The notes: generated by a model not told the origin, from the letters alone. DNA of 33,385 nucleotides from a virus (IMGVR_UViG_2565956726_000001), one strand, 5' to 3'. Numbered from the stretch's first letter, positions 10,995 to 15,398 are shown. Program-made: numbers and translations.

Positions 10995-11990
10995 GTGACC
11001 GTGAGAGCACTACTGACCCCTGAAATTGCCCCGCGTATGGGGATCGTATTGTTCAGACCAGGTTCAGAGCTGATGCCCTTGTTTATGCAGGGGCGTGTCC
11101 TGCTGGAGCCTGAGCCGGAACGTTATTCATCTTTCGCCAGTGGTGCCGTTCCGGCGGCATCACAACCGCTGGCGGATGATCCTGCCGTTCGGGCCGTGTT
11201 CCGCAATGAGGCAGTGATCCGTCGTGCTGGTGGCGTGGAATGTCTTGAAAGCTGGTTACTTCGTGAAAAAGGCTGCCAGTGGCCTCATTCCGACTGGCAC
11301 AGCGAGAACATGACAACAATGCGACACGCTCCGGGCGCAATCCGTCTGTGCTGGCACTGCGATAACCAGCTGCGCGATCAGTTCACGGAACGGCTGGAAT
11401 CAATGGCAACGGATAACTGTGCCCGCTGGGTGTTGTCTGTTGTGCGTCGGGATCTCGGTTTTGATGACAGTCATGTTGTGACAATGCCGGAACTGTGCTG
11501 GTGGCTGATTCGTAATGATCTGGCGGATGCCTTACCGGAAAGTGCAGCCCGTAAGGCACTGAGATTACCGAAGCCTGTTGTGCCGTCTGTTACCCGGGAA
11601 AGTGACCTTGTGCCTTCGGTTCCTGCCACCAGCATCATCCAGGATAAGGCGAAAAAGGTGCTGGCGCTGAAAGTGGATCCGGAGTCGCCGGAGTCTTTTA
11701 TGTTACGCCCAAAACGTCACCGCTGGGTTAATGAAAAGTACACGCGCTGGGTTAAGACGCAGCCGTGCGCATGTTGTGGAAAACCTGCTGATGATCCCCA
11801 CCACCTGATAGGCCACGGTCAGGGGGGAATGGGTACAAAAGCGCATGACCTTTTTGTGTTGCCTTTGTGCAGAAAGCATCACGACGAGCTGCATGCGGAT
11901 ACCGTGGCATTTGAAGAGAAGTATGGCTCCCAGCTGGAGCTGATATTTCGTTTTATCGATCGCGCACTGGCGATTGGTGTGCTGGCCTGA
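10995..11990 (+). CDS. DUF968-type protein with C-terminal Cys/His cluster (possible HNH-like fold)
   Basis: 331-aa ORF; C-terminal [39 protein letters not shown]; start may be GTG 11001 rather than 10995. Confidence 0.6.
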
Positions 11991-12007
11991 TTTTGTGGAG
12001 AAAGTTA

Positions 12008-12391
12008 ATGCGTGATATTCAGATGGTTCTTGAACGTTGGGGAGCGTGGGCGGCTAATAATCATGAAGATGTGACCTGGTCGTCCATTGCCGCCGGTTTT
12101 AAGGGATTAATTCCTTCAAAAGTAAAATCTCGCCCGCAATGTTGTGACGATGACGCGATGATCATTTGCGGGTGCATGGCCCGTCTGAAAAAGAACAACA
12201 GCGATTTACACGATTTATTAGTAGATTATTATGTATGTGGTATGACATTCATGTCACTGGCAAGTAAGCATTGCTGCTCGGATGGTTATATCGGGAAAAG
12301 GTTACAGAAGGCTGAGGGCATAATTGAAGGGATGTTAATGGCATTAGATATCCGGTTAGATATGGATATCGTTGCTAATAATTCTAATTGA
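12008..12391 (+). CDS. quuD: Late-gene antiterminator Q (QuuD-type, about 127 aa)
   Basis: Sequence recalled as near-identical to DLP12 QuuD; ATG 12008 with GGAG SD. Confidence 0.8.
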
Positions 12392-12423
12392 TATGCAATT
12401 GTTTACTAAAAGTTATTAAAAAT

Positions 12424-12442
12424 GGGGCGTGGAAACGCCCCC
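12424..12442 (-). terminator. Probable intrinsic terminator for the porin transcript
   Basis: GGGGCG-TGGAAA-CGCCCC hairpin followed on the minus strand by AUUUUUAAU. Confidence 0.45.
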
Positions 12443-12527
12443 AAAATAAAGGGTAATATATAACAGAAGGTTTATATAGTAAGAAGCAAGGTAGTGCTTC
12501 TAAAGGAAGTGGCTTGAGGGCTCCACT

Positions 12528-12568
12528 TATATGTTGCGGAGGCAAAGCCTCCCGCAACATATCTTTTT
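12528..12568 (+). terminator. Intrinsic terminator on plus strand (tR'-like, downstream of Q)
   Basis: 15-bp near-perfect stem ATATGTTGCGGAGGC/GCCTCCCGCAACATAT followed by CTTTTT. Confidence 0.5.
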
Positions 12569-12579
12569 CGTAAGTCAGA

Positions 12580-13662
12580 TTAGAACTGATAAACCAGACC
12601 TACAGCGACGATGTCGTCGGTATCAATACCAGCTGTTTTGGTAAACTTACTATCGTCAATTAAGTTGATTTTGTAATCAACAAAAGTGGACATGTTTTTA
12701 TTAAAGTAGTAAGTAGCACCGACATCGACATACTTGACTAAGTCTCGGTCACCATGAACACCAAGGTCTTTACCTTTTGACTGAAGGTAAGCAACAGATG
12801 GACGCAGACCGAAGTCAAACTGATATTGTGCTACTGCTTCAAAGTTTTGTGCTTTGTTTGCAATATGGTTATTACCAAAAACGGTCATATTCTGAGTTTC
12901 AGAATATGTGGTAGCCAGATAGATATTGTTCGCATCATATTTCAGGCCTGCAGCCCATACTTCCGCATTTTTGCCGGAGGCATTGAATTTGCTCTTACCA
13001 TAGGCGACCTGACCGTCAGTGCGATCTGATTTAGCATAGGTTGCACCCACGCCGAATCCTTCATACTCATAAGTAGTGGAGAAACCGAAACCATCACCAT
13101 TGGCTTCAGTTACGTCAGTGCGGTCATTTTTACCCTGATACTGAGCAGCAAAGTTCAGGCCATCGACCAGACCAAAGAAGTCGTTGTTACGATAAGTTGC
13201 AACACCAGTAGTGCGACCAGTCATGAACACATCTGTTTGGGTCCAGGTATCACCACCGAATTCTGGCAGGACGTCAGTCCACGCACCGATGTCGTATGCT
13301 ACACCGTAGTTACGGCCGTAATCGATTGAGCCGTAATCACCAAATTTCAGGCCTGCAAATGCAAGACGGGTTTTGTCTTTGGAAGAACCTTGAGATTCAG
13401 CACGGTTGCCTTTGAATTCATATTCCCACTGACCGAAACCAGTCAGTTGATCGTTGATTTGGGTTTCACCTTTGAAGCCAAGACGGGCATAAGTAGTATC
13501 ACCATCATCTGCATCATTAGAGGAGAAGTAGTGCTTGGCATTAACTTTCCCGTATAGATCCAGCTTGTTACTGTCTTTATTATAAATTTCAGCTGCCTGA
13601 GCAGACATCGCCATCAGTACTGATGCAGCTACAGCAGAAATTGCCACTGTTAATTTTTTCAT
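12580..13662 (-). CDS. nmpC: Prophage-encoded general porin (OmpC/NmpC/Lc family) with signal peptide
   Basis: 360 aa; signal peptide ending AQA-AE; terminal aromatic residue (..VGLVYQF); located between Q and the lysis genes in reverse orientation, as in DLP12. Confidence 0.9.
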
Positions 13663-14090
13663 TGTACGCCCTTTTTTTTGAACTATTATTAAAAAATGAT
13701 GTCACTGCGCGATAAATATTCATCTAATCAATGCGATTATTTCAAGATGTAAGTTTTAGTTTCTCATTTAATTTGTGAAGTAGATCTCTATTTTTATCTA
13801 AACCTTTTCTATCTAATCCTATTCATGGCTCTTGTTTGAACGAAAATAAATCTATTAGCTAATTTATATTAATGGCACTTATTTATAAGAGATCTATAAT
13901 TCTTTAGCTTAATTTAAACAAACTAAAAATAACATCGGAAATTATTCATTGGTTATTTGTTGAAGTTTTCTTATGTATTTGTGGTGGTGTTTTGAACACT
14001 CGGTGGCATTCTCACAAATATCATTTAGTAGTTTACGTACGTAAAAAATTGGTTATGCTGTTAAGAGTGGTTACTTCGTCACACAGCTTA

Positions 14091-14122
14091 AACCCGCCGT
14101 CGAGCGGGTTTTTCCATTTTTT
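14091..14122 (+). terminator. Intrinsic terminator upstream of the lysis cassette
   Basis: AACCCGC-CGTCGA-GCGGGTT hairpin followed by TTTCCATTTTTT. Confidence 0.5.
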
Positions 14123-14251
14123 GAGTCTCGATATTAGCTGATAACCCAATACCTGAGTTATTCACTGACTCCGAATCTGTTACGTTTCTGCCTTTATTGC
14201 GATACGTAGTATCCCCTTAATTTACACCCGCTTTGTCTGCGAGGTGGGGTT

Positions 14252-14467
14252 ATGAAATCCATGGATAAGTTAACAACGGGTGTCGCCTATGGCACCTCAG
14301 CAGGTAGTGCCGGATACTGGTTTTTACAGCTGCTAGATAAAGTCACGCCCTCACAGTGGGCGGCAATTGGAGTGCTGGGTAGCCTGGTATTTGGCCTGCT
14401 GACGTACCTGACAAACCTTTATTTCAAGATTAAAGAAGATAAGCGCAAGGCTGCGAGAGGTGGATAA
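14252..14467 (+). CDS. S: Class II holin (phage-21 S-type pinholin), dual-start motif MKSMDK
   Basis: 71 aa, close to recalled S21 sequence ([17 protein letters not shown]...); two in-frame Met codons separated by a Lys codon. Confidence 0.9.
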
Positions 14468-14964
14468 TGCCTCCATCATTACGAAAAGCTGTTGCTGCTG
14501 CTATTGGTGGCGGGGCTATTGCTATAGCATCTGTGTTAATCACTGGCCCAAGTGGTAACGATGGTCTGGAAGGTGTGAGACATAATCCTTACAAAGACAT
14601 AGTTGGTGTATGGACTGTATGTTACGGGCATACAGGAAAAGACATCATTCCCGGTAAAACGTATACCGAAGCAGAGTGCAAAGCCCTCCTGAATAAAGAC
14701 CTTGCCACTGTCGCCAGACAAATTAACCCGTACATCAAAGTCGATATACCGGAAACAACGCGCGGCGCTCTTTACTCGTTCGTCTACAACGTGGGTGCTG
14801 GCAATTTCAGAACATCGACGCTTCTTCGCAAAATCAACCAGGGCGATATCAAAGGCGCATGTGACCAGCTACGTCGCTGGACATACGCTGGCGGTAAGCA
14901 ATGGAAAGGGCTGATGACTCGCCGTGAGATTGAGCGTGAAGTCTGTTTGTGGGGGCAGCAATGA
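14467..14964 (+). CDS. R: SAR endolysin (phage-21 R-type lysozyme with N-terminal signal-anchor-release domain)
   Basis: 165 aa; hydrophobic Gly/Ala-rich N-terminus then a lysozyme-like catalytic region (call by recall); TAATG overlap with holin stop. Confidence 0.9.
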
Positions 14965-15398
14965 GCAGGTTAACCGCGATTATCTCCGCTCTGGTTATCT
15001 GCATCATCGTCTGTCTGTCATGGGCTGTTAATCATTACCGTGATAACGCCATTACCTATAAAGAACAGCGCGATAAAGCCACGTACATCATCGCTGACAT
15101 GCAGAAGCGTCAACGTGACGTAGCAGAACTCGATGCCAGATATACAAAGGAGCTTGCTGATGCTAACGCGACTATCGAAAGTCTCCGTGCTGATGTTTCT
15201 GCTGGGCGTAAGCGCCTGCAAGTCGCCGCCACCTGTGCAAAGTCAACGACCGGAGCCAGCGGCATGGGCGATGGAGAAAGCCCAGGACTTACAGCAGATG
15301 CTGAACTCAATTATTACCGTCTCCGAAGTGGAATCGACAAGATAACCGCGCAGGTTAACTACCTGCAGGAATACATCAGGACGCAATGCCTGAATTAA
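14961..15398 (+). CDS. Rz: Rz i-spanin
   Basis: ATG 14961 overlaps R stop (ATGA); N-terminal TM segment plus coiled-coil periplasmic domain. Confidence 0.85.
15160..15345 (+). CDS. Rz1: Rz1 o-spanin lipoprotein, embedded in +1 frame of Rz
   Basis: Signal peptide with lipobox (LLGVSAC) followed by Pro-rich mature region; entirely inside Rz. Confidence 0.7.

Follow-up and report, generated by a model that had tools for sequence, protein, structure and literature searches.

Between the antiterminator gene Q and the lysis genes S, R and Rz, the window (by which we mean the whole analysed stretch of 33,385 nucleotides) carries a porin gene that reads opposite to both, just as the first-pass annotation had placed it (table 1). 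Q and the porin gene converge, 188 nt apart, and the order Q, porin, S/R/Rz matches that of DLP12 and many phages. The start of Q is likely the ATG at 12008 rather than the TTG at 11993, since the alignment to Q of phage PA5 begins at that ATG. From position 987 onward the window follows the lambda-like siphovirus Escherichia phage PhiR49_1 with 99.3% identity. The first 986 positions are occupied by the 3' part of an IS3-family element, which replaces the start of the PhiR49_1 sequence and bears a 296-aa transposase ORF (54-944, +) and a frameshift pseudoknot matching the Rfam family ALIL (12-128, +). The integrase gene is truncated by this element to a remnant ORF (826-1302, -), and the prophage may be unable to excise. 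A second outer-membrane gene, coding for an omptin (OmpT-like protease), is found beyond the window near the right end of the PhiR49_1 record (43844-44797).

Table 1. Features of the porin locus and its surroundings; positions are counted from the first nucleotide of the window.
Feature	Position	Strand	Basis or remark
Antiterminator gene Q, QuuD type, 127 aa	12008-12391	+	ORF, stop 12389-12391; RefSeq name of homologue quuD
Porin cassette, 1,688 nt	12341-14028		stands where PA5 has 86 nt
Porin 3' UTR (the tail), homologue of the 167-nt IpeX RNA	12413-12579	-	93-94% identity to DLP12 and PA-2
Terminator (Rho-independent) at the end of the porin mRNA	12418-12441	-	hairpin, A, U5
Predicted seed, tail nt 107-137, AAACCUUCUGUUAUAUAUUACCCUUUAUUUU	12443-12473	-	complementary to ompC -32..-6 and ompF -15..+9
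SL4, weak 7-bp hairpin (A-U pairs only) presenting the loop ACCUUCUG	12457-12478	-	fold; not conserved in P7
SL3, hairpin	12482-12501	-	A-to-G variant gives a G-U pair in 8/29 variants
SL2, hairpin with loop core CCCUCA	12507-12528	-	core invariant in all lambdoid, P7 and plasmid copies
SL1, hairpin of 15 bp with one bulged G and a 3-nt loop	12529-12562	-	fold
Porin ORF, Lc/NmpC type, OmpC family, 360 aa	12580-13662	-	ATG start, stop 12580-12582
Porin signal peptide, 23 residues	13594-13662	-	same sequence as annotated for Lc
Counterpart of the promoter-proximal CRP site	13771-13791	-	J02580 feature 1363-1383 (PA-2 lc), sequence identical
Counterpart of the distal CRP site	14066-14086	-	J02580 feature 1067-1087 (PA-2 lc), sequence identical
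Hairpin followed by a T-run, upstream of the holin gene	14090-14117	+	homologous to the hairpin after Q in 933W-type phages
Lysis genes S/R/Rz	14252-15398	+	

The porin shares 91% amino-acid identity with the Lc porin of phage PA-2, scores 521 bits against the NCBIfam model NF007841 (OmpC subfamily; curated cut-off 484 bits) and aligns over its full mature length with the solved structures of OmpC and OmpK36 (E ~1e-137). Its translation shows the PEFGGD motif and a C-terminal F, and it has the attributes of the 16-strand general porin class, i.e. the OmpC/OmpF/PhoE family with a cleavable signal peptide. The earlier description of a complete OmpC/NmpC-family porin with signal peptide is confirmed by the NF007841 and Lc matches and the identical signal peptide, and the protein is, judging from its sequence, an allele of Lc. 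The substitutions and two short indels that distinguish it from PA-2 Lc cluster in a few stretches, which are taken to be surface loops by comparison with other porins. The region upstream of the gene is 96% identical to PA-2 and K-12, and a regulatory region with CRP sites is common to PA-2 Lc, DLP12 NmpC and the window. A consensus scan for a sigma-70 promoter of the porin gene gave none. Just 5' of the porin ribosome-binding site lies an A-run (13668-13676, -) that has eight A in the window and PA-2 and seven in K-12. Within 11900-14500 the window differs from PhiR49_1 by 1 nt, which may account for the 380-aa porin of that record, with its start 60 nt upstream.

The extent of the inserted segment can be read from a comparison with the 933W-type phage PA5. 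Positions 12008-12340 of the window correspond to PA5 282-614 (nt 1-333 of PA5 Q, 74% identity), and the correspondence resumes at 14029-14113, matching PA5 701-784 (78% identity), a block that spans the PA5 Q stop, with 16 nt ahead of it and 68 nt beyond. Besides the tail and the porin gene, the segment in between holds the final 17 codons of Q and, upstream of the porin gene, an AT-rich region (26-32% GC); GC content within the cassette is 26-40%, compared with 48-58% in the flanks. It is a moron in that it forms an insert with definable junctions, present in the window and absent from PA5, and, with the unchanged counterparts of two CRP sites upstream of the porin gene, it fits a self-contained, catabolite-controlled unit. 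The block 14029-14113 (+), similar to the end of Q and the hairpin and T-run after it in 933W-type Stx phages, appears to be a remnant of the ancestral end of Q; it overlaps one of the CRP sites annotated in PA-2. We first read this block as pR'/tR', an interpretation rejected on finding that in PA5 it consists of the last 16 nt of Q and the adjoining hairpin. In the StxS paper, a leader of 247 nt lies downstream of Q; given this and the PA5 layout, the block does not locate pR'. A promoter-like site at 13872-13900 (+) is a consensus match only. The porin gene had been described in the first-pass annotation as antisense to the late operon; its orientation is as claimed (porin on the minus strand, Q and S/R/Rz on the plus strand), and any placement inside the late transcript would be conjectural, since the late promoter pR' was looked for in the window and not located.

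The porin stop codon is followed by a non-coding tail with a 15-bp-stem hairpin and, at its end, a terminator with a U-tract, previously estimated at about 165 nt and now delimited to 167 nt. Its calculated fold has a free energy of -53.6 kcal/mol, compared with -31.7 +/- 3.4 kcal/mol for dinucleotide shuffles (z = -6.5; reached by 0/200), and consists of four hairpins (SL1-SL4) and the terminator. The terminator hairpin (12441..12424) has 7 bp, six of them G-C pairs, and is followed by an A and T5 at 12422-12418 (-); variation among copies of it is mostly confined to the loop. Among 29 distinct lambdoid variants of the tail, 8/71 paired columns vary as against 28/75 unpaired ones (Fisher p = 2.6e-4), a count that excludes the 22-mer used to collect the copies. 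The same 22-mer makes SL4 appear invariant in the copies collected from IMG/VR. Three stem changes are recurrent: one turns an A-U into a G-U pair, one is absorbed by a shift of the SL1 bulge, and one breaks a pair. No compensatory change was found in the 50 pairs among these 29 variants, because the copies are too similar. The perfect SL1 stem with its bulged G in the window has its K-12 counterpart in a stem with a bulged C, a G-to-C change in the 3' arm being absorbed there by the bulge moving from G to C, and in phage P7 a hairpin built on the same AUAUG/CAUAU base is present. On the plus strand (12529-12570), SL1 precedes CTTTTTC and is a possible terminator for rightward transcription of Q. 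If SL1 does stop the Q transcript, the convergent transcripts would overlap by ~150 nt; the T-run is missing in P7 relatives. It may also be mentioned that the CCCUCA of SL2 is complementary to UGAGGG in the ribosome-binding site of ompF (ompC has AGAGGG) and may provide a second contact.

Comparison with E. coli K-12 clarifies the identity of the tail. Over its whole length it can be aligned with the spacer between nmpC and quuD in DLP12, a cryptic prophage of K-12, at a mean column identity of 91%, BLAST identity being 92.9% with a 241-nt query and 94.0% with the 167-nt tail alone, and the homologous segment lies at 574362-574528 in K-12-type coordinates. It is likewise 94.1% identical to the lc 3' UTR of PA-2. 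The suspicion that the DLP12 equivalent encodes IpeX is borne out by the 94.0% identity over 167 nt to K-12-type genomes, and the proposed alignment with the ipeX region gives the end-to-end match just described. The tail occupies the place of IpeX (the 3' UTR of a phage porin, between the porin stop and the convergent stop of Q) and resembles it in its 167 nt, hairpins and terminator; it differs from the K-12 sequence in a few loop positions and in having one T fewer in the U-run before the terminator. The porin gene itself is split by IS5 in K-12 and intact in the window. In K-12 the remaining 58-nt nmpC fragment and the 189-nt spacer add up to exactly 247 bp; Castillo-Keller, Vuong and Misra reportedly mapped, in 2006, the active region to 247 bp after the IS5 insertion in nmpC. 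The same work is said to have noted the same sequence after lc in PA-2, and to have found OmpC and OmpF, and not OmpA, repressed.

IpeX is a 167-nt RNA of DLP12 that lowers OmpC and OmpF (PMC12197685; PMC5069750; PMC7177473), these two porins being named as its targets (PMC7177473, PMC5069750). It is transcribed from the phage porin promoter within the porin transcript and then processed (PMC12197685). A search for a sigma-70-like promoter within 12413-12700 (-) of the window found none, which fits processing of IpeX rather than its separate transcription. The locus is thus almost certainly the Lc/NmpC porin cassette of lambda-like coliphages with IpeX as its 3' UTR, to judge from sequence identity and gene order. 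The feature itself is already known, a known locus rather than an 'IpeX-type' candidate.

Copies of the tail, up to four per genome, are present in 2,517 of the 5,426 complete E. coli genomes, and in none of the complete E. coli genomes listed does an annotated feature lie under it. The RefSeq annotation of K-12, which lists micF and micC, lacks ipeX. No Rfam family matched the tail at gathering or permissive thresholds, the sole match in the window being ALIL of the insertion sequence. Among species representatives, the 22-mer of the tail occurs in only two E. coli genomes and in a 442-bp contig assigned to Streptomyces alkaliterrae (NZ_VJYK02000722.1), which holds it exactly and is most likely contamination by E. 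coli or phage DNA. The most diverged lambdoid tail (87.7%), in E. coli SF-166, adjoins ybcM and has no quuD beside it, indicating that the cassette also occurs in decayed prophages lacking Q. In one IMG/VR prophage, an insert of ~703 bp with an IS200-like transposase and a ~10-bp duplicated junction is found at the position of window 12559-12568, between the porin stop and SL1, where it would part the tail from the porin promoter. A protein-based locus search returned only identical porins. Two candidate relatives were discarded: a porin match from a Salmonella 'phage' is the chromosomal ompN, flanked by ydbK and uspF, and the prophage sRNA svsR is unrelated and located in cI.

While the locus is a known one, the way in which its RNA affects host porins deserves closer consideration. 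According to one review, IpeX differs from MicF and MicC in not base-pairing with ompC or ompF (PMC3617542), and the same view is expressed in softer wording elsewhere (PMC12197685). Our calculations suggest the contrary. Nucleotides 108-122 of the tail (AACCUUCUGUUAUAU), which form the loop and the 3' arm of SL4, could pair with ompC -21..-7 (AUAUAACAGAGGGUU), giving 15 contiguous predicted pairs, one of them G-U, over the Shine-Dalgarno sequence (P 0.003-0.006, for a seed region picked after inspection of the data). Past a 5-nt bulge, CCUUUAUUU is predicted to pair with AAAUAAAGG of ompC (9 bp), bringing the total to 24 pairs and -26.4 kcal/mol. The calculated cost of opening the tail at nt 108-122 is 3.5 kcal/mol, and that of the SL4 loop alone 0.26 kcal/mol. 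When opening energies were added and the whole tail was compared with dinucleotide shuffles of the whole tail, it scored -16.4 kcal/mol against ompC (0/400 shuffles as good) and -11.3 kcal/mol against ompF (8/400). The scores were not significant for ompA (+3.7 kcal/mol, 60/60 shuffles as good) or for the phage porin's own mRNA (+1.1 kcal/mol, 57/60). An energy-only scan with 37-nt windows and no accessibility term was marginal for ompC (8/150 shuffles), and whole-length duplex folding of the tail with its targets was uninformative, even the MicF-ompF pair not reaching significance in it. For comparison, the 5'-most 30 nt of MicC were calculated to pair at -22.8 kcal/mol with a part of ompC that overlaps the site of the tail. 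The model hence predicts an accessible seed that is complementary to the ompC ribosome-binding region beyond chance and, more weakly, to ompF. This predicted specificity (ompC and ompF, neither ompA nor the porin's own leader) matches the effects reported for ompC and ompF and the reported lack of one on OmpA.

Of the 13 copies retrieved by BLAST, 12 have the seed block unchanged, the exception, ev243, having one change just 5' of the pairing stretch. In Smith-Waterman comparisons with the antisense strand of the tail, the ompC leader reached a score of 32 (0/1000 shuffles) and ompN was matched over 51 nt through the start codon (2/1000), whereas the comparisons with ompA and the phage's own porin were not significant. 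In view of these matches to the ompC leader and to ompN through the start codon, the seed looks like an inverted copy, or relic, of the 5' end of a porin gene.

A partly independent test of the pairing is provided by the tail of phage P7. The P7 nmpC product is 81% identical to the window porin, and its 3' UTR is 73% identical to the tail over 90 nt and has the same layout (SL1, SL2, SL3, an open seed stretch and a terminator). The P7/plasmid element differs from the window tail in that SL4 is absent, the seed fits ompF best and some of the plasmid terminators are unrelated. Elements of this type reside on 116 plasmids from E. coli, E. fergusonii, Klebsiella and Salmonella; P1-like and conjugative plasmids are among the carriers, and the examples typed are IncK2/Z, IncI1 and IncHI1B. 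We found no report that names the P7/plasmid nmpC 3' UTR element IpeX. At the position of the seed, the P7 tail reads ACUUCAUGUUAUUUAUUACCUUUU, which fits ompF -15..+9 with -17.3 kcal/mol (0/200 shuffles as good) and ompC less closely (4/200), and plasmid variants behave alike; neither ompA nor P7's own porin leader showed a fit with the P7 seed.

The P7 and plasmid sequences are also informative about the fold. In an alignment of eight sequences, 96.9% of the cells of SL2 and SL3 are paired and 6 of the 17 pairs have changed on both sides, whereas slid controls gave 32-53% paired and 0-1 two-sided changes. Three of the two-sided changes between lambdoid and P7/plasmid copies fall in SL2, where one pair forms the series G-C, G-U, A-U, and three in SL3; this covariation rests mostly on two clades, and the independent events are few. 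The occurrence of G-U intermediates argues for a helix formed in RNA of the porin strand.

We incline, with some reserve, to the view that the tail acts by direct antisense pairing. The other possibility to be reckoned with is that IpeX acts without pairing to ompC or ompF, by titrating a protein or an RNase or through another RNA, the complementarity being a relic of an inverted duplication. Besides the position taken by the reviews (PMC12197685, PMC3617542), this reading is favoured by the weak result of the energy-only test and by the likeness to ompN through the start codon, on account of which the similarity could stem from descent rather than selection. We nevertheless consider it rather doubtful: in copies gathered without pattern bias the seed is the most conserved part of the tail, though it does not lie in a strong helix, the P7 and plasmid seeds have changed at many positions and yet kept significant fits to ompF and ompC, and the targets predicted from pairing (ompC and ompF, to the exclusion of ompA and the element's own leader) agree with those reported.

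A much simpler role, in which the tail would be a mere 3' end of a convergent gene pair, its hairpins stopping and stabilizing the porin transcript and SL1 stopping that of Q, with no role in trans, appears quite improbable. The terminator is there, a T-run does follow SL1 on the plus strand, and Q and the porin do converge at a distance of 188 nt, but ~160 nt with five hairpins far exceeds what termination needs, P7 relatives keep SL1 without the plus-strand T-run, and near-identical sequences of DLP12 and PA-2 lower OmpC experimentally (PMC12197685, PMC5069750). It is hardly conceivable that the tail encodes a small protein: a 58-aa ORF starting inside SL1 exists (12384..12560, -) and the record of one phage has a short hypothetical CDS within the spacer, but the ORF was rejected as coding because K-12-type copies have TAA for TTA in the window, which would cut it to ~25 codons, one-nucleotide indels in the T-run shift the frame between copies, and it matches no protein family.

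Taking these considerations together, we regard as probable the overall explanation that combines the known porin/IpeX locus with an antisense action of the tail. The porin gene would form a leftward unit with its own terminator and a region of CRP sites, and would provide a lysogen with a new general porin. The tail, whether attached to the porin mRNA or freed as an RNA of ~165 nt, would lower OmpC and OmpF of the host, so that the cell surface would be swapped rather than added to. The SL4 loop, the 3' arm and the linker before the terminator would pair with the ompC leader at -32..-6, and pairing over the Shine-Dalgarno sequence of ompC would block ribosome binding. The same region of the tail would pair less well with ompF, across the Shine-Dalgarno sequence and the start codon, and the phage porin, whose leader has no such site, would escape.

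This scheme invites comparison with MicC and MicF, each of which is likewise encoded beside one porin gene (ompN and ompC, respectively) and represses a rival porin at its ribosome-binding site, the pairing in the case of the tail being predicted. Both halves of the MicC 5' end (GUUAUAUGCCUUUAUU) recur in the tail, as GUUAUAU and CCUUUAUU, and the P7 relative has the MicF string UUAUUUAUUACC. MicC and MicF are separate, divergently transcribed and Hfq-dependent, whereas the tail lies within the 3' UTR of a porin mRNA and has five U after its terminator; the effect of IpeX on ompC has been reported to be Hfq-independent. In having a terminator common with the mRNA the tail resembles the sRNAs cut from mRNA 3' ends (reviewed in PMC9438474), and IpeX is indeed said to be released by processing (PMC12197685). 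Unlike other sRNAs of this kind, the tail and its mRNA are located on a mobile element, and the target is the competing gene of the host. With similar reserve, IpeX may be viewed as a genuine antisense RNA, directed against ~24 nt of the ompC leader and belonging to an undescribed family of porin 3' UTR regulators of lambdoid prophages, P1/P7-like phage-plasmids and conjugative plasmids, in which the seeds would have drifted towards ompC or ompF while the element's own porin leader stayed immune.

By itself the locus adds little, being one more porin-plus-IpeX cassette of a kind present in nearly half of the complete E. coli genomes; the added value of the analysis is a concrete pairing model and evidence for a wider family on phage-plasmids and plasmids. 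The lack of annotation means that a regulator of the two main porins has been overlooked in ~2,500 genomes, including the RefSeq record of K-12. The mode of action of IpeX, 'not by base-pairing' according to the reviews, becomes testable with a specific 24-bp model. OmpC and OmpF control the entry of antibiotics and serve as phage receptors, and the plasmid relatives suggest that it is common for mobile elements to deliver a replacement porin along with an RNA silencing those of the host. If this is true, mobile porin-plus-RNA cassettes would influence how permeable clinical strains are to drugs and how susceptible they are to phages.
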